Source of the DNA: Escherichia coli
GTDB lineage: Bacteria > Pseudomonadota > Gammaproteobacteria > Enterobacterales > Enterobacteriaceae
DNA length: 64,000 nucleotides
Assembly (NCBI RefSeq): GCF_965641715.1
Contig: NZ_OZ282455.1
Strand: one strand, 5' to 3'
The position numbers and the translations under genes are program-made. The notes under the pieces were generated by a model that saw only the letters and a list, made by a program, of their open reading frames with translations, had not been told where the DNA came from and did no database searches. Below, in pieces: positions 5,412 to 19,878 of this stretch (position 1 is the stretch's first letter; every line of letters starts with the position of its first letter).

Positions 5412-6125
5412 AAAACCCCTGGCAGGCTGACGCCTGCCGGAAATGCGGGGTGCAGCGCCTGCGGCGCTGCCGGCCCGGCTTTCCGGTCAGAAGGTAGTGT
5501 ATGGCTGTATGCAGGGAACAGGTGTGATATTCCGTGACACTGTCACTGTTTCTGGCTGTCTTTTATTGCGCCCACTTCGGCTCCCGGCTGCCTGGCGGCA
5601 TCCGGTCGTCAGGCCCGACTCCGACAGGCAGCTGCTGGCGCACCCGCCAGTCTCCGCCGAACCCGCTGGCGCGGTTTCGGGCTGCCGCTACGGTCCGATG
5701 CGTGAAAACCCGGCTTGCAGCGACCGTTCCGGTCGCGCCGCCCCTGTCGCGCCGTGACCTGCGCTCCCTGCACACCTGACGGTGTGTGAGGAAACTGCGC
5801 CTGATGGCGCAGCAGTCTTCCCTCCTGCCGCCACCCCTGCGGCCTGTTTCCCGCTGTGGACTTTCCGGGGGGCAGACGTAACCCCCTCCCGTTCCATCTG
5901 TCCAGGGTGAGATGCACCGGCCACAAAATTTTTAGCCATGAACCCGGCTAAAAATTTTGCGTCCGCCCCCGGACAGCTGTCCCGTGAGGCGGTAAACGGG
6001 CCCCCATCGGAAAGGTCCACTGCGGGGAGAAACCCCTGTGAAGTGGACGGCAGGAGGAGCTTTCGCTCCTCTGAAGGGGCACATGAACGTCCCGTCGCCG
6101 GTATCCGGTTTATCTCACATCTTTC
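5412..6125. repeat. dispersed leading-region repeat, family B copy 1 (candidate ssDNA promoter / Frpo-ssi-like element)
   Basis: About 700 nt highly similar to 11782..12445; 3' part (about 5745..6125) also shared with 14961..15315; contains AT-rich palindrome CAAAATTTTTAGCC-N9-GGCTAAAAATTTTG; ends at ssb SD. Confidence 0.7.
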
Positions 6126-14501: not shown

Positions 14502-14753
14502 TCACACATCCTCTGCCGTTTCCCCCAGTTCATTTTCCAGTCGCCTGATGATATCTGCCTTACGCATCCCCTGCATGTGAGGCAGCAGGTCACGGACTGA
14601 AAGTGCCTGGGTGGTCCTCCAGACGGTGACGTCCACCTGTTCCGCATTTTCCCAGGCGTGCCATGTTCTCTGCGTCACGCCAAATTCTCTGGCCGCTTTT
14701 TCGCGTGACCAGAGCATGCTTTTTCGCCAGATTCGCAGTTCCCAGCCGGTCAT
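14502..14753 (-). CDS. small HTH DNA-binding protein (XRE/Cro-like candidate regulator)
   Basis: 83 aa; HTH-like segment SREKAAREFGVTQRTWHAWEN; AAGGTG SD; divergent from leading genes. Confidence 0.6.
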   Translation of the reverse strand: MTGWELRIWRKSMLWSREKAAREFGVTQRTWHAWENAEQVDVTVWRTTQALSVRDLLPHMQGMRKADIIRRLENELGETAEDV

Positions 14754-14767
14754 AAAACACCTTTAAA

Positions 14768-14788
14768 AAAGTGAAAAAACTTCACTTT
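14768..14788. promoter_or_regulatory. operator-like palindrome AAAGTGAA-N5-TTCACTTT (site 1)
   Basis: Perfect 8-bp inverted repeat about 15 nt upstream of the HTH gene start. Confidence 0.5.
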
Positions 14789-14834
14789 ATTTTATCATCA
14801 TAATCACCAAATTAACGCGATAAATAAGTGTGAA

Positions 14835-14855
14835 AAAGTGAAGAAATTTCACTTT
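14835..14855. promoter_or_regulatory. operator-like palindrome AAAGTGAA-N5-TTCACTTT (site 2)
   Basis: Second identical palindrome 67 bp from site 1 in an AT-rich divergent promoter region. Confidence 0.5.
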
Positions 14856-14960
14856 TTTTGCTTGTAAATGTCGTGCGGTTTTCTCTGTTTTCACCTGTGC
14901 GGGAGTGGTGTGCCAGTGACCACCACATGCCATTGTTGTGCCGTCGTTTTTCTTCAGTCG

Positions 14961-15315
14961 CGCCGTATGCGGCGCTCCCTGCACACCTTACGGTGTGTAA
15001 GGCCACTGCGCCTGATGGCGCAGCTGTCTCTGCCTGTCTGCCGCCGCACTGCGGCCTGTTCTCCGCAGACGGACTTTCCGGGGGTACATACATGACCACA
15101 TCCCGTTTCAGTCGTCCAGGGGAGAGATGTACCAGCCACAAAACTTTTTGCCGCAGGCGTCAAAAACTTTTGCGTCTGCCCCCGGACAACTGCCCCGTGA
15201 CGTGGTGAGCGTCCCCCGTCGGAAAGGTCCACTGCGGGGAAATCCCCGAAGACCCGGACGGCAGAAGGAGCTTCGCTCCTCCGGGAAATGACCTGGCTGA
15301 CCCGGCAGTCGTGAC
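14961..15315. repeat. dispersed leading-region repeat, family B copy 3 (3' unit only)
   Basis: Matches only the 3' about 355 nt of copies 1 and 2; ends at SD of ORF 15330. Confidence 0.65.
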
Positions 15316-15329
15316 GATGAGGAGACAAT

Positions 15330-16181
15330 GTGATGAATCAGACTTTACCCACTGCTGACCTGAATACTGCCGGCACGACAGATGTTATTCCGTCTGTGGC
15401 TATCGACCGCATCATCGCGCAGCGTAACGAAGGTATTGCACTGTTCATGCAGGCGATGGAATGCCTGGCGACAGCGCGCAAGATTCTGCTCGATGCGTCA
15501 GGTGATATTTTTCTTTACGGGTTTGAAGACTGCGTGACTGATTCCGTTCGTCGCATAGATAAACCGGAAGAAGCGAAAAGGAATATCACCCGTCTTGCCG
15601 ACCGGAAAATCTGGGATCGCCTGATGACAGATACGGGCATGTACACCTTCATGAGTTCATGCCAGCGTGATGAGTGGAACAGCCAGCTGATGAGCGACAC
15701 CTGTCCTGAAATCACCCTGGACAATGTACTGGCAACATTCCGCCATCTGAATGCCTGCAAGATGCAGACATTTGAACAGGGACTGATTGATGTCTACCGG
15801 AAATTGTCATGGGATTACAGAACCAATAATCCCTGCCGTCTGGGTAAGAAAATCATTATTGAAAACCTGCTGTACCGCTGGAGTAACGGGCGTGTGACGC
15901 TGGACTGCAGCGGACGGGAGGCACTGGATGACCTGGTACGTCCGTTTTATCTGCTGGAGGGGCGCAACGTTCCTGACTTCAGGAACAGTATCGGGGCGCA
16001 GTATGGTGAATTTCTCGGGAACGGCGACAATGTCGGTAAGCTGTTAGAAGGGGAATATTTTACGGTGCGTGGCTACCAGAAAGGGACCGTACACATTGTC
16101 TTTAAGCGTTCTGACCTTGTTGAAAAACTGAATGATATTATTGCACGGCATTATCCAGGTGCATTGCCGCCACGAGTCTGA
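15330..16181 (+). CDS. hypothetical protein (283 aa), oriT-proximal leading gene
   Basis: Track ORF with GAGGAGA SD; hairpin plus T-run after stop. Confidence 0.6.
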   Translation: MMNQTLPTADLNTAGTTDVIPSVAIDRIIAQRNEGIALFMQAMECLATARKILLDASGDIFLYGFEDCVTDSVRRIDKPEEAKRNITRLADRKIWDRLMTDTGMYTFMSSCQRDEWNSQLMSDTCPEITLDNVLATFRHLNACKMQTFEQGLIDVYRKLSWDYRTNNPCRLGKKIIIENLLYRWSNGRVTLDCSGREALDDLVRPFYLLEGRNVPDFRNSIGAQYGEFLGNGDNVGKLLEGEYFTVRGYQKGTVHIVFKRSDLVEKLNDIIARHYPGALPPRV

Positions 16182-16266
16182 TTAAACAGAAAAGCCCTGG
16201 TATTTATGCCGGGGCTTTTTTTTCTGTAATCATCATAATCTCAGAACACGATGTGACATTGTCACA

Positions 16267-16602
16267 TCAATTGTTGTTCATATCGATGCCATCTTTCCTG
16301 CCTGAATCTGTCTTTTTAGGTGCTGTTTTAGAGGAAGAACGGCGGGATGGTTTTTTCGATTCTGCTTCCCGAATAATGTCACGAAGTGCCTTCTCTCCTA
16401 CTTCATACCCTGCATTTTTGAGCGTGTCACGAACATCTGCCAGTGTATAACCCTTTGTCCTTACCAGGACAATAATGTCATCACGAATGGCATCAAGAAA
16501 ATCACGCAATGTTTTCCGTTGAGCGGTGAGATCTGGCAATTCCGATAAAGCAGCTTTTGCCAGCTGGATGTCATCATCTGAGTAAAATTTTTTAGAAGCC
16601 AT
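16267..16602 (-). CDS. hypothetical small protein with basic C-terminal tail (111 aa)
   Basis: Track ORF 16267..16608 (GTG); ATG at 16602 with GGAGAG SD; tail SKKPSRRSSSKTAPKKTDSGRKDG suggests nucleic-acid binding. Confidence 0.5.
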   Translation of the reverse strand: MASKKFYSDDDIQLAKAALSELPDLTAQRKTLRDFLDAIRDDIIVLVRTKGYTLADVRDTLKNAGYEVGEKALRDIIREAESKKPSRRSSSKTAPKKTDSGRKDGIDMNNN

Positions 16603-16660
16603 TGGCACTTTCTCTCCGTTTCATGTTGAAGTCTGATTTTATCATCAAAAACTGACTCCT

Positions 16661-16791
16661 GGCAGGGCTGCGCCCTGCCTCTGCCGTCTGCATAAGACTA
16701 TGATGCACAAAAATAACAGGCTATAATGGCCTGAAAAACGGGACAGGATGTGCAATTGTAATACCGTCACACGCGACGCTATTACAATTGC
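16661..16791 (-). other. oriT: oriT (origin of transfer) with predicted nic site on the - strand
   Basis: 12-bp inverted repeat GCAATTGTAATA / TATTACAATTGC (16752..16763, 16780..16791); on the - strand the repeat is followed by ACATCCTG then TCCC, matching the IncP-type nick consensus ATCCTG|Y, which places the nick between + coordinates 16744/16743, 8 nt from the repeat; second palindrome GGCAGGGCTGCGCCCTGCC at 16661..16679; directly upstream of nikA. Confidence 0.7.
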
Positions 16792-16835
16792 CATCTGGTC
16801 AGGGCTTCGCCCCGACACCCCGTAAGGAGCCTGAA

Positions 16836-17168
16836 GTGAGTGATAGTGCGGTAAGAAAGAAAAGTGAGGTACGGCAAAAGACAGTTGTCAGGACACTCAG
16901 ATTCTCTCCTGTTGAGGATGAAACCATCAGGAAAAAAGCTGAAGATTCCGGACTTACTGTATCTGCTTACATCCGAAATGCAGCACTGAATAAGCGAATT
17001 AACTCCCGTACAGATGATGCTTTTCTGAAGGAGTTAATGAGACTGGGAAGGATGCAGAAGCATCTGTTTGTTCAGGGAAAAAGAACCGGTGACAAGGAAT
17101 ACGCAGAAGTGCTTGTTGCCATAACCGAACTTACAAATACATTGCGTAAACAGTTAATGGAAGGTTGA
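16836..17168 (+). CDS. nikA: relaxosome accessory protein NikA
   Basis: Track ORF 16788..17168; GTG at 16836 after AAGGAG gives 110 aa; adjacent to oriT and nikB. Confidence 0.85.
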   Translation: MSDSAVRKKSEVRQKTVVRTLRFSPVEDETIRKKAEDSGLTVSAYIRNAALNKRINSRTDDAFLKELMRLGRMQKHLFVQGKRTGDKEYAEVLVAITELTNTLRKQLMEG

Positions 17169-17178
17169 GGATTCTCCG

Positions 17179-19878
17179 GTGAATGCAGTCATTCCAAAAA
17201 AGAGAAGGGACGGCAAGTCTTCGTTCGAAGACCTGGTATCCTACGTCTCTGTCCGGGATGACATGACCGATGAGGAACTGGATTTATCTTCTTCTTCGCA
17301 GGCTGAACAACCGCACCGAAGCCGTTTCAGTCGCCTTGTTGATTATGCGACACGTCTTCGAAATGAGTCATTCGTGGCGCTGGTTGATGTCATGAAGGAC
17401 GGCTGCGAATGGGTCAACTTTTATGGTGTCACCTGCTTTCATAACTGTACTTCTCTTGAAACTGCCGCTGCAGATATGGAGTACATTGCCCGGCAGGCAC
17501 ACTATGCAAAAGATGACACTGATCCTGTTTTTCACTACATTCTTTCCTGGCAGTCACATGAAAGCCCGCGTCCGGAACAGATTTATGACAGTGTACGTCA
17601 TACGCTGAAATCACTCGGCCTTGCCGACCATCAGTATGTCTCTGCCGTGCATACTGATACAGATAATCTGCACGTCCATGTGGCTGTTAACCGGGTACAC
17701 CCTGAAACGGGTTATCTGAACCGGTTATCCTGGAGTCAGGAAAAACTCAGTCGTGCCTGCCGTGAGCTTGAACTGAAGCATGGTTTTGCTCCGGATAACG
17801 GTTGCTGGGTCCATGCACCGGGAAATCGTATCGTTCGCAAAACCGCCGTTGAACGTGATCGCCAGAACGCGTGGACACGCGGGAAAAAACAAACTTTTCG
17901 CGAGTATGTCGCGCAGACAGCGGTCGCTGGTTTACGCAGTGAACCTGTAAATGACTGGTTATCCCTGCATCGTCGTCTTGCGGAAGATGGTCTGTACCTG
18001 TCTCAGATGGACGGAAAATTTCTGGTGATGGATGGCTGGGATCGCAACAGGGAAGGTGTACAGCTTGACTCGTTTGGTCCCTCCTGGTGTGCAGAAAAAC
18101 TCATGAAAAAAATGGGTGACTACACGCCAGTACCAAAAGACATTTTCAGCCAGGTGGAAGCACCAGGACGCTATAATCCGCACTTCATTGCCGCTGATGT
18201 TCGCCCGGAAAAAATCGCTGAAACAGAAAGTCTGCAGCAGTATGCCTGTCGTCATCTTGGAGAACGTCTGCCGGAAATGGCACGGGAAGGACGGCTGGAA
18301 AACTGCCAAGCTATTCACCGCACACTGGCTGAAGCGGGATTATGGATGCGTGTTCAGCATGGTCACCTGGTTATCTGTGACGGTTATGATCATAACCAGA
18401 CTCCCGTTCGTGCTGACAGCGTATGGTCGCTGCTGACGCTCGACAATGTGAATCAACTCGATGGTGGCTGGCAGCCTGTACCAACAGATATTTTCCGCCA
18501 GGTTACGCCAACAGAACGCTTCCGTGGTCGTCGTATGGAGAGCTGTCCTGCGACCGATAAAGAATGGCACCGTATGCGTACAGGCACGGGGCCGCAGGGG
18601 GCTATCAAACGCGAACTGTTTTCTGACAAAGAAAGTCTGTGGGGATACAGCATCAGCCATTGTAGCCCTCAGATTGAAGAAATGATCACACAGGGTGAGT
18701 TTACCTGGCAGCGTTGTCATGAGCTGTTTGCACAACAGGGACTGATGCTACAGAAACAACATCACGGGCTTGTTGTCGTTGATGCCTTTAATCATGAGCA
18801 AACGCCGGTGAAGGCCAGCAGCATTCATCCTGATCTGACACTGGGGCGTGCAGAGCCACAGGCCGGACCTTTTGTGAGTGCCCCAGCAGATTTGTTTGAC
18901 AGGGTGCAACCTGAAAGTCGCTATAACCCGGAGCTGGCTGTCAGTGACAGGTACGGGGTCAGCAGTAAACGTGACCCAATGCTGCGCCGGCAGCGACGTA
19001 AAGCCAGAGCTGAGGCCCGTGCTGACCTGCGTGCCCGCTATCTGGCATGGCGTGAACAATGGCGTAAACCAGATCTGCGTTATGGGGAACGTTGTCGGGA
19101 AATTCATCAGGCATGCCGTCTGCGGAAGTCACACATTCGTGCGCAGTACGATGATCCGGCATTACGTAAGCTGCATTATCACATTGCAGAAGTTCAGCGA
19201 ATGCAGGCATTGATCAGGCTGAAAGAAGACATCAGGGATGAGCGACAGAAACTTATTGCTGACGGGAAGTGGTATCCACCCTCTTACCGTCAGTGGGTCG
19301 AAACTCAGGCTGCTCAGGGAGACAGGGCTGCTGTATCGCAGCTGAGAGGCTGGGATTATCGCGATCGCCGTAAAGACAGGTCACGCACAACGACGACAGA
19401 CCGCTGTGTCGTGCTTTGTGAACCGGGCGGAACGCCGGTATACGGTAATACCGGTGATCTCGAGGCCCGTCTGCAGAAGAACGGGAGTGTTCGTTTCCGT
19501 GACCGTCGGACGGGAGAGTTTGTCTGTACGGATTATGGTGACAGGGTTGTTTTCCGTAATCACCATGACCGCAATGCGCTGGCAGATAAACTGGATTTGA
19601 TTGCACCGGTATTATTCGGGCGTGATCCTCGCATGGGTTTTGAACCAGAAGGAAACGACAAACAATTTAACCAGGTCTTTGCTGAAATGGTTGCCTGGCA
19701 TAATGTGACAGGCCGTACCGGTCACGAAGACTACAGGATTACGCGACCGGACGTGGATCATCACCGTGAAGGAAGTGAACGCTACTACCGCGATTATATC
19801 GCGGCGAACAGCAACGATGACGCATCACTGCCTCCGCCGGAGCAGGATAAACGCTGGGAACCGCCTTCTCCAGGTTAA
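17179..19878 (+). CDS. nikB: relaxase NikB (MOBP family)
   Basis: 899 aa; histidine triad HTDTDNLHVHVAVN typical of relaxases. Confidence 0.95.
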   Translation: MNAVIPKKRRDGKSSFEDLVSYVSVRDDMTDEELDLSSSSQAEQPHRSRFSRLVDYATRLRNESFVALVDVMKDGCEWVNFYGVTCFHNCTSLETAAADMEYIARQAHYAKDDTDPVFHYILSWQSHESPRPEQIYDSVRHTLKSLGLADHQYVSAVHTDTDNLHVHVAVNRVHPETGYLNRLSWSQEKLSRACRELELKHGFAPDNGCWVHAPGNRIVRKTAVERDRQNAWTRGKKQTFREYVAQTAVAGLRSEPVNDWLSLHRRLAEDGLYLSQMDGKFLVMDGWDRNREGVQLDSFGPSWCAEKLMKKMGDYTPVPKDIFSQVEAPGRYNPHFIAADVRPEKIAETESLQQYACRHLGERLPEMAREGRLENCQAIHRTLAEAGLWMRVQHGHLVICDGYDHNQTPVRADSVWSLLTLDNVNQLDGGWQPVPTDIFRQVTPTERFRGRRMESCPATDKEWHRMRTGTGPQGAIKRELFSDKESLWGYSISHCSPQIEEMITQGEFTWQRCHELFAQQGLMLQKQHHGLVVVDAFNHEQTPVKASSIHPDLTLGRAEPQAGPFVSAPADLFDRVQPESRYNPELAVSDRYGVSSKRDPMLRRQRRKARAEARADLRARYLAWREQWRKPDLRYGERCREIHQACRLRKSHIRAQYDDPALRKLHYHIAEVQRMQALIRLKEDIRDERQKLIADGKWYPPSYRQWVETQAAQGDRAAVSQLRGWDYRDRRKDRSRTTTTDRCVVLCEPGGTPVYGNTGDLEARLQKNGSVRFRDRRTGEFVCTDYGDRVVFRNHHDRNALADKLDLIAPVLFGRDPRMGFEPEGNDKQFNQVFAEMVAWHNVTGRTGHEDYRITRPDVDHHREGSERYYRDYIAANSNDDASLPPPEQDKRWEPPSPG

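Follow-up and report, generated by a model that had tools for sequence, protein, structure and literature searches.

We examined yggA, a small gene beside the origin of transfer (oriT), in a 64,000-nucleotide stretch of Escherichia coli DNA (contig NZ_OZ282455.1; hereafter, the window), which by its match to plasmid records is an IncI1 plasmid. The listing of open reading frames (ORFs) gives a frame of 113 aa at window positions 16267..16608 on the - strand, read from a GTG. All homologues share a conserved N-terminus, M-A-x-K-K-(F/W)-(Y/F)-(S/T), which shows the ATG at 16602 to be the true start, and the coding sequence then spans 16267..16602 (- strand; 111 aa plus stop), the very frame named in the original prediction for this DNA. 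A Shine-Dalgarno sequence, GGAGAG, can be read directly at 16612..16617 (-), 9 nt before this ATG. The locus is 99.8-99.9% identical to IncI1 plasmids, on which the RefSeq entry for the ORF is WP_000157095.1, and the ORF is yggA of the IncI1 plasmid R64, a core backbone gene of IncI1 plasmids. The counterpart in plasmid pESBL, at 69882-70217 (-), is O3K_25952, 'Protein YggA', renamed Hp23 (PMC4288162), and equals the window ORF in length, strand and position; this is one and the same 111-aa gene, with no difference, located between a gene for a DUF4942 protein and oriT/nikA.

The same protein is called 'Mobilization protein MobC' in UniRef (Q3ZU63_ECOLX) and 'DNA-binding wHTH protein' in one source, and its RefSeq product name is 'molybdopterin-guanine dinucleotide biosynthesis protein MobC'. 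No molybdenum-cofactor family appears among the Pfam and NCBIfam matches of the ORF at E <= 1, and the context is oriT and the leading region; we accordingly rejected a molybdopterin-guanine dinucleotide enzyme (MobA/MobB), and the RefSeq name probably arose when the gene symbol mobC was wrongly expanded. This product name has spread over thousands of records, including the copies on IncI1, Erwinia and Lelliottia plasmids. The involvement of yggA in mobilization has been stated as not studied (PMC6112013), and the gene is known by name, without an experimentally assigned function.

The yggA gene and its place beside oriT

That yggA is a real gene and not a chance ORF follows from its spread, from the number of contigs with the exact protein and from purifying selection at the protein level. 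A tblastn search recovered it in 3544 plasmid records, the identical protein sequence is recorded on at least 1000 contigs, and the 2-kb stretch around the gene matches 2773 plasmid records, many at 99.8-99.9% identity. Between diverged copies from I-complex plasmids, synonymous sites are saturated (proportion of synonymous differences, pS, 0.63-0.82), while residues 1-82 show a proportion of nonsynonymous differences (pN) of 0.14-0.29 and, where computable, a ratio of nonsynonymous to synonymous rates (dN/dS) of 0.085-0.22. For the cleanest pair (L015/L017), dN/dS is 0.085 in this domain and 0.62 in the C-terminal tail. Residues 1-82 are under strong purifying selection.

The gene adjoins oriT directly. 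The sequence ATCCTG|TCCC at 16740..16749 (-), which we take to be the nick core from the established IncP/IncI1 (MOBP) nick-region consensus, places the nick (nic) between 16744 and 16743; it is invariant in the six aligned I-complex loci and, read on the - strand, begins 8 nt after a 17-bp inverted repeat (16752-16768/16775-16791; 94% complementary), the NikA-binding arm region, which forms a hairpin in the fold of the single-stranded DNA (ssDNA). Between this repeat and nikA lies a further oriT block, GGTCAGGGCTTCGCCCCGACACCC (16797..16820), which is invariant in the I-complex alignment and visible in 12 of 15 upstream regions compared. Divergently from yggA run nikA (16836..17168, +), encoding the ribbon-helix-helix (RHH) relaxosome accessory protein (Pfam NikA-like, 3.5e-22; RefSeq), and nikB (17179..19878, +), encoding the MOBP relaxase (ORF listing, RefSeq annotation). 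Further neighbors are the DUF4942 gene (15330-16181, +) and trbC.

Because the nick core reads on the - strand, this is the transferred strand, and transfer runs leftwards in the window. On it yggA starts 141 nt 3' of the nick, divergent from nikAB, with nothing between the gene and the nick site. It had been placed between oriT and the first leading gene; it does adjoin oriT, but is itself the first leading-region gene and the first gene to enter the recipient. The sense strand of yggA is the transferred strand, and its template is the non-transferred strand, as the prediction had it, or the complement newly made in the recipient. The yggA mRNA has the sequence of the transferred strand, and the incoming single strand therefore cannot serve as a template for it, in contrast to the leading-region genes ardA, psiB and ssb, which lie on the opposite strand to yggA. 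The description of the ORF as opposite to everything around it holds for the immediate neighbors and fails deeper in the leading region, where the annotation of a near-identical plasmid shows two other small - strand ORFs (window 14502-14753 and 14787-14984).

A predicted helix-turn-helix protein of the StbA/TraK kind

A profile from an alignment of 14 sequences (A2) returned, in an exhaustive search, 587 representatives (50% identity clustering) at E <= 1e-3, 68 of them at E <= 1e-10; a word-indexed protein search had reached only copies from Enterobacteriaceae, and the impression of a narrow family that it gave was corrected by the profile search. Two profile matches, P0112 and P0128, are very long repetitive proteins that look like low-complexity artifacts and were ignored. 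Relatives found by tblastn include copies on pOXA-48-type IncL/M plasmids, with ~38% identity over residues 1-76, and on plasmids of Erwinia, Serratia, Yersinia, Tatumella, Lelliottia and Enterobacter. The gene order seen in the window, with a relaxase gene and a nikA/mobA-like gene pointing away from the yggA-like gene across ~190-410 bp, was found in all nine annotated distant plasmid loci, and in eight of these the genes next after the yggA-like gene lie on the opposite strand. Contig loci with both flanks (L015-L022, L026/L027) have the same divergent layout; the P0093 locus (L025) lacks its upstream flank, and the two P0190 loci (L023/L024) contain no recognizable relaxase or NikA-like gene. 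In 13 of 17 loci searched with the nick-core pattern A(T/C)C(C/T)(T/G)G(T/G)(T/C)CC, a core precedes the yggA-like ATG by 140-285 nt on the strand of the gene, and a fourteenth was seen by eye at -105 in a Tatumella locus.

Scans with Pfam, NCBIfam, PHROGs and PADLOC gave no family above threshold for the ORF, with only sub-threshold matches to helix-turn-helix (HTH) regions of transposases, and ten distant family members likewise matched no curated family. The earlier statement that no family could be recognized is superseded, the gene being the named yggA of R64. The hidden Markov model (HMM) classes proposed with it for checking (RHH, H-NS-like and MobC, PF05713) found no match in Pfam or NCBIfam. 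An RHH protein was rejected for want of any RHH family match, against the 3.5e-22 of the neighboring nikA; an H-NS-like nucleoid protein, since no such family is among the Pfam/NCBIfam matches at E <= 1; and an RSF1010-type MobC, since PF05713 is absent from the Pfam matches at E <= 1 and none of the NCBIfam models for MobC matched. RSF1010 MobC shares with YggA just the name 'MobC' and the divergent position.

AlphaFold models built on alignment A2 (mean predicted local distance difference test score, pLDDT, 70.9) and on a 111-sequence family alignment, A5 (mean pLDDT 76.7, with block means of 84-91 over residues 31-80), agree in an all-helical protein without an N-terminal strand, with helices at residues 9-20, 32-48 (kinked), 54-63 and 70-82, followed by a disordered tail. 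Codons 32-82 (16357..16509, -) would form a tri-helical HTH core, with residues 70-82, GEKALRDIIREAE, as the putative recognition helix. In these models YggA thus appears to possess the N-terminal tri-helical HTH by which StbA, TraK and MobC of pTF-FC2 are recognized. Residues 1-82 are mildly acidic, with an isoelectric point (pI) of 5.1. The tail, residues 83-111 (SKKPSRRSSSKTAPKKTDSGRKDGIDMNNN; codons at 16270..16356, -; block-mean pLDDT 54-62), has a pI of 10.6, with 9 K+R and 7 S+T among its 29 residues, which bears out the Lys/Arg/Ser-rich C-terminus noted earlier. It evolves fast (dN/dS 0.24-1.8), and the net charge of the first 25 tail residues has a median of +4 over 107 family members: what is conserved is the composition of the tail and not its sequence.

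Sequence profile comparisons, which do not depend on the models, point to the StbA group. We built an alignment of StbA (A3) independently, from a separate search seeded with StbA of R388. Comparison of A2 with A3 by hhalign gave a probability of 63% (E 7e-5) over 74 columns spanning all helices, and the family profile A5 against A3 gave 93.8% (E 1.7e-7). In the PDB, the A5 profile finds the StbA chain 7pc1 at E 1.7e-4 (hmmsearch), and R388 StbA directly matches distant relatives found with the YggA profile (P0190, 4e-10; P0129, 3e-8). On this profile evidence we consider YggA homologous to StbA, remotely and not closely. As a separate observation, the C-terminal domain with which sigma-54 binds promoters (RpoN box; 2ahq_A/2o8k_A) also matches A5, at E 6e-5, slightly better than the 1.7e-4 for StbA, which could reflect real ancestry or a generic HTH likeness.

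The arrangement of the loci agrees with this relation. A published survey grouped StbA with TraK (RP4), MobC (pTF-FC2), TraD (NAH7) and YciA (R721) and found the genes of this group always 3' of the nick and hence first to enter the recipient, a position used as a criterion for StbA-type genes; the survey was seeded with StbB, reported a bias towards plasmids with mating-pair formation systems of type T (MPF_T), and did not have IncI1 or IncL/M on its list (PMC3098194). YggA lies on the same side of the nick and on the same strand. In R388 (examined as NC_028464), trwA (-) is followed by stbA, stbB and stbC (+) and then by the remaining leading region on the - strand; in R751, which represented IncP, traJ (-) is followed by traK, traL and traM (+). 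With respect to nic and the RHH protein (TraJ corresponding to NikA), TraK of RP4/R751 thus has the position of YggA, and the IncI1 oriT carries an IncP-type nick core; TraK differs in its Pro/Ala-rich linker and in the leader operon traK-traL-traM, in which the ATPase TraL follows. TraK is reported to be homologous to StbA and to bind the stretch from nic to traK (PMC3098194).

The differences from StbA are substantial. R388 StbA (PDB 7PC1) has 141 aa, including a C-terminal domain of ~70 residues needed for segregation; in the alignment comparison this domain is not present in YggA, which ends after its 29-residue tail. The stbA gene shares an stbABC operon with the gene of the ParA-like StbB; its product, which has two arrays of five 9-bp repeats as binding sites, is indispensable for plasmid stability and goes with MPF_T systems. 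YggA, by contrast, has 111 aa and belongs to a plasmid with a type I system (MPF_I); its gene is monocistronic, neither StbB nor a repeat array accompanies it, and maintenance does not require it. Downstream of yggA come a predicted terminator and the convergent DUF4942 gene, and no StbB/TraL/MobD-like ParA/MinD ATPase gene was found downstream in the window or at any YggA-clade locus examined, while R388 and R751 each have one. As far as sequence comparison can tell, YggA would be a remote, lone and shortened protein of the StbA/TraK kind rather than a member of an StbAB system.

A possible repressor of the oriT operon

The nearest characterized relative of YggA is Orf35, encoded on pCTX-M3 (IncM) and reported to be 32% identical and 53% similar to it (PMC6112013). 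An Orf35-like protein from our profile search (P0081) matches YggA by BLASTP at 37% identity (E 2e-15) and is 63% identical to the 'MobC' of ~900 plasmid records. Orf35 and the IncL/M 'MobC' of the pOXA-48 type are 32-38% identical to YggA over the N-terminal domain, occupy the same divergent site across oriT from nikA and have the same build of domain and basic tail, with a turn motif GF-D in IncL/M and GYE in IncI1; the window ORF has both the full-length similarity and the divergent oriT-side position that mark the YggA/Orf35 family. Orf35 and YggA alike are dispensable for self-transfer. In an orf35::cat mutant, the mRNAs of nikA, nikB and traH rose 40-, 23- and 80-fold, and mobilization of an oriT plasmid rose >200-fold with self-transfer unchanged; its authors proposed Orf35-dependent repression by a protein without a known DNA-binding motif (PMC6112013). 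The HTH predicted here would supply that motif. StbA, for its part, recognizes repeats in its own promoter and acts as a repressor on promoters bearing such repeats; when stbA is deleted, R388 transfer rises 50-fold.

Between nic and yggA, two promoters appear to stand back to back within ~90 bp. A consensus scan predicts a sigma-70-like promoter for yggA (PyggA) at 16636..16665 (-), with -35 CTGCCA (16665-16660), an 18-nt spacer and an extended -10 TG-TAAAAT (16641-16636), whose -10-like hexamer is present in five of six aligned I-complex loci. On the leading side of nic, TATAAT at 16722..16727 (+, in nikA sense) is probably the -10 of the promoter of the oriT operon (nikAB); it is invariant in all six aligned loci, and CATAAT/TATAAT-like hexamers stand at the equivalent place in L006-L008. 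A nikAB transcript from here would pass across nic and then the inverted repeat.

Across the I-complex loci, conservation between nic and yggA is highest in GACGGCAGAGGCAGGGC-GCA-GCCCTGCC (16655-16680). This block includes an 8-bp inverted repeat, GGCAGGGC/GCCCTGCC (16661..16679), which overlaps the predicted yggA -35 and forms a hairpin in the ssDNA fold; in L021 and L011, compensatory changes (G>T/C>A) preserve its pairing. The transferred strand over 198 nt folds far better than shuffled controls (z = -7.0). Taken as an observation in its own right, the compensatory changes and the z-score point to a structured single-strand element at window 16661-16679. Rfam gave no RNA family in 15800-17300.

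A candidate operator, GTGCATCAT at 16700..16708 (-), agrees with the R388 StbA-binding repeat, (C/T)TGCATCAT, at eight of nine positions and overlaps the putative nikA -35. Its core, GCATCAT, is present in I-complex intergenic regions and recurs once, on the same strand, in those of IncL and IncM-like loci, where 0.028 per 150 nt would be the background; this recurrence in three lineages (~p 0.005 by a rough Poisson estimate) is suggestive, and the core is absent from the other lineages examined, that is, from most. Over the whole window, TGCATCAT is not enriched (4 occurrences, 3.8 expected). Another sequence, CATCATARTCT, which is inverted on the two flanks of yggA, was rejected as an operator, being at chance level for a region of this size by our own estimate.

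The interpretation we favor, with little better than even confidence, is that YggA is a lone HTH repressor of the StbA/TraK type acting on the oriT operon, nikAB. It would bind the ~140 bp from nic to its own start codon, where both divergent promoters, PyggA and the nikAB promoter reading through oriT, seem to lie, and binding would lower transcription of nikA-nikB and probably also of yggA itself. The basic tail may add non-specific DNA contacts or help several copies bind together. The supply of relaxosome would thereby be kept low in established donors, and yggA would be expressed in a recipient only after complementary-strand synthesis. In this scheme several points are inferences of ours: that YggA binds DNA, where its operator lies, that it regulates its own gene, what the tail does and in which direction regulation goes in IncI1. 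The original prediction of a DNA-binding accessory or regulatory factor for oriT or nikAB gains, as to a regulator, from the predicted HTH, the StbA/TraK homology, the divergent site and the Orf35 genetics, but not as to an obligatory accessory: transposon sequencing (TnSeq) of pESBL scores yggA as non-essential for transfer, an outcome of the kind that the prediction itself had listed as refuting it, and an obligatory role in the relaxosome is therefore unlikely.

Several points weigh against repression of nikAB by YggA. The narrow profile, A2, reaches an hhalign probability of no more than 63% against StbA, and a Foldseek search of the PDB with the better YggA model gave nothing significant, the best match being sigma region 4 (E 0.47), followed by calmodulins. 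GTGCATCAT is conserved in just four of the six I-complex loci, missing from L021 and L011, and L021 lacks it despite a recognition helix almost identical to that of the window protein; a repeat scan of the window found no stbDR-type array like that of R388 near yggA. Repression of nikAB(-tra) has been demonstrated genetically for Orf35 alone, and because the orf35 allele is a cat replacement whose complementation was weak and condition-dependent (PMC6112013), its effect may be one in cis on the adjacent promoter. The setting differs as well: in pCTX-M3 nikAB heads the whole tra operon, so that Orf35 also controls genes of the type IV secretion system (T4SS), whereas IncI1 nikAB stands alone, tail to tail with trbABC, and the consequences may not be the same. 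In the pESBL screen, yggA/Hp23 received probabilities of 0.99 for being non-essential, 0.00 for a role in maintenance and 0.01 for one in transfer (PMC4288162), and in transposon-directed insertion-site sequencing (TraDIS) of a related I-complex plasmid, no yggA homologue was listed among the conjugation genes, with impB the only repressor named. These results fit a modulator, and equally a gene of little consequence under laboratory conditions.

An architectural role in the relaxosome, like that of TraK, we regard as unlikely, if deserving of attention. TraK stimulates relaxosome formation and is needed for efficient transfer of RP4. YggA would, on this account, bend or wrap the DNA next to oriT and stimulate nicking, or termination and recircularization, by NikA-NikB, as a positive yet non-essential factor. 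The gene has the position and orientation of traK in IncP, TraK itself is the reported StbA homologue that binds nic-traK DNA, and the basic tail, the compensated inverted repeat and the stable ssDNA fold would suit such a protein. The low TnSeq probability of a requirement for transfer argues against it, as does the opposite sign of Orf35, whose deletion raises mobilization, and the direct profile score of YggA against R751 TraK is marginal, at 3.6 bits.

Somewhat less probable still is that YggA regulates establishment, shutting off or tuning the early 'zygotic' leading-region genes once the plasmid is double-stranded, rather than acting on nikAB. R388 StbA does repress several leading-region promoters (ardC, orf7, orf12 and orf14), the geometry of the locus allows expression of yggA only after complementary-strand synthesis, and a 13-bp palindrome at the yggA stop codon recurs exactly upstream of ssb. 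The connection of the palindrome to YggA is pure conjecture, though, no significant motif was found to be shared by the yggA region and other leading-region promoters, and the Orf35 data point to nikAB-tra.

Tethering of the plasmid to the nucleoid near oriT by YggA, as an StbA-like adaptor for positioning or segregation that balances vertical against horizontal transmission, is improbable. It draws on StbA, a segregation protein, being the best structural and profile match of YggA, and on a locus geometry like that of stbA in R388. Yet YggA is without the ~70-residue domain that StbA needs for segregation, neither a centromere-like repeat array nor an StbB partner was found at the loci examined, pESBL has separate ParA-like and ParB-like genes, and the TnSeq probability of an essential role in pESBL maintenance is nil. 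Last, a conserved but non-functional or chance frame, its constraint owed to DNA or RNA elements of oriT, would fit the missing phenotype in two transposon screens and the occasional frameshifted copies (e.g., P0045, P0053), but is very hard to credit given protein-level purifying selection despite saturated synonymous sites, 587 family representatives, a Shine-Dalgarno sequence and predicted promoter, the absence of an Rfam match and the strong phenotype on deletion of the homologue Orf35.

If YggA represses as Orf35 does, its loss could raise mobilization of co-resident oriT plasmids by orders of magnitude with self-transfer unchanged, and standard screens, by conjugation or by TnSeq, would not pick up such a phenotype. 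Genes for extended-spectrum beta-lactamases (ESBL) and carbapenemases have IncI1 and IncL/M plasmids among their major carriers, and the gene is on ~2000 IncI1-type and ~900 IncL/M records of the plasmid collection. Placing YggA with StbA and TraK would mean that the 'first-in' gene adjacent to oriT is a DNA-binding regulator in MPF_I plasmids too, without the StbB ATPase. Going beyond repression of nikAB as such, we offer with considerable doubt the idea of a built-in timer, in which MPF_I plasmids (IncI1, I-complex, IncL/M) have kept a lone StbA-type repressor without StbB. Owing to its unusual orientation, yggA would be the one leading-region gene beside oriT that the incoming strand cannot express, so that the repressor is made only from double-stranded plasmid DNA, by which time the divergent nikAB promoter would have fired. 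Were this true, new transconjugants would get a short period of unrepressed relaxosome expression, and the transient high-frequency transfer classically seen with I-type plasmids could owe something to it; single yggA mutations could create far more efficient helpers for mobilizing resistance plasmids that bear oriT(IncI1).

Further features and observations around the locus

Downstream of yggA, a G+C-rich hairpin at 16190..16219 probably terminates transcription in both directions, that of yggA and that of the convergent DUF4942 gene: on the + strand a T-run follows it, and on the - strand a shorter T-rich stretch, TTTTCTGTTT. Rfam gave weak terminator-type matches at 16177-16223. The DUF4942 gene (Pfam 2.4e-50) is the second gene of the leading region, and it recurs near yggA-like genes in other I-complex loci (L008, L015, L016).

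A perfect palindrome, GATGTGACA-T-TGTCACATC, at window 16250-16268 overlaps the yggA stop codon. Its core, GTGACAnTGTCAC, is kept just after the yggA-like stop in the diverged loci L015 and L017, though the gene tails differ, and a second exact copy lies at window 5534-5546, in a G+C-rich hairpin region upstream of ssb, with ~0.004-0.008 exact matches expected in 64 kb by our own estimate. The palindrome could be an operator for some dimeric regulator. Also just downstream of yggA, window 16246-16262 (ACACGATGTGACATTGT) matches the nick region at 16743-16759 (ACAGGATGTGCAATTGT) at 14 of 17 positions; this is probably chance, and otherwise yggA would have the true nick site on one side and a degenerate, nick-like one on the other.

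Among the tblastn matches to YggA, Pseudomonas accounts for 61 plasmid records, none of them among the matches listed. On one contig, two tandem, overlapping YggA-like genes (L026:3684-4028 and L026:4001-4288) lie by a NikA-like gene and a relaxase gene, which suggests a local duplication of the oriT-adjacent HTH gene. In an alignment (A4) of window 16593-16845 (-) with L019:2261-2510, the two sequences show no difference between nikA and the nick core, the inverted repeat included, and diverge sharply a few bases past the nick, with the synonymous sites of yggA saturated. The break resembles a junction left by recombination at nic or right beside it, with leading regions swapped as modules.

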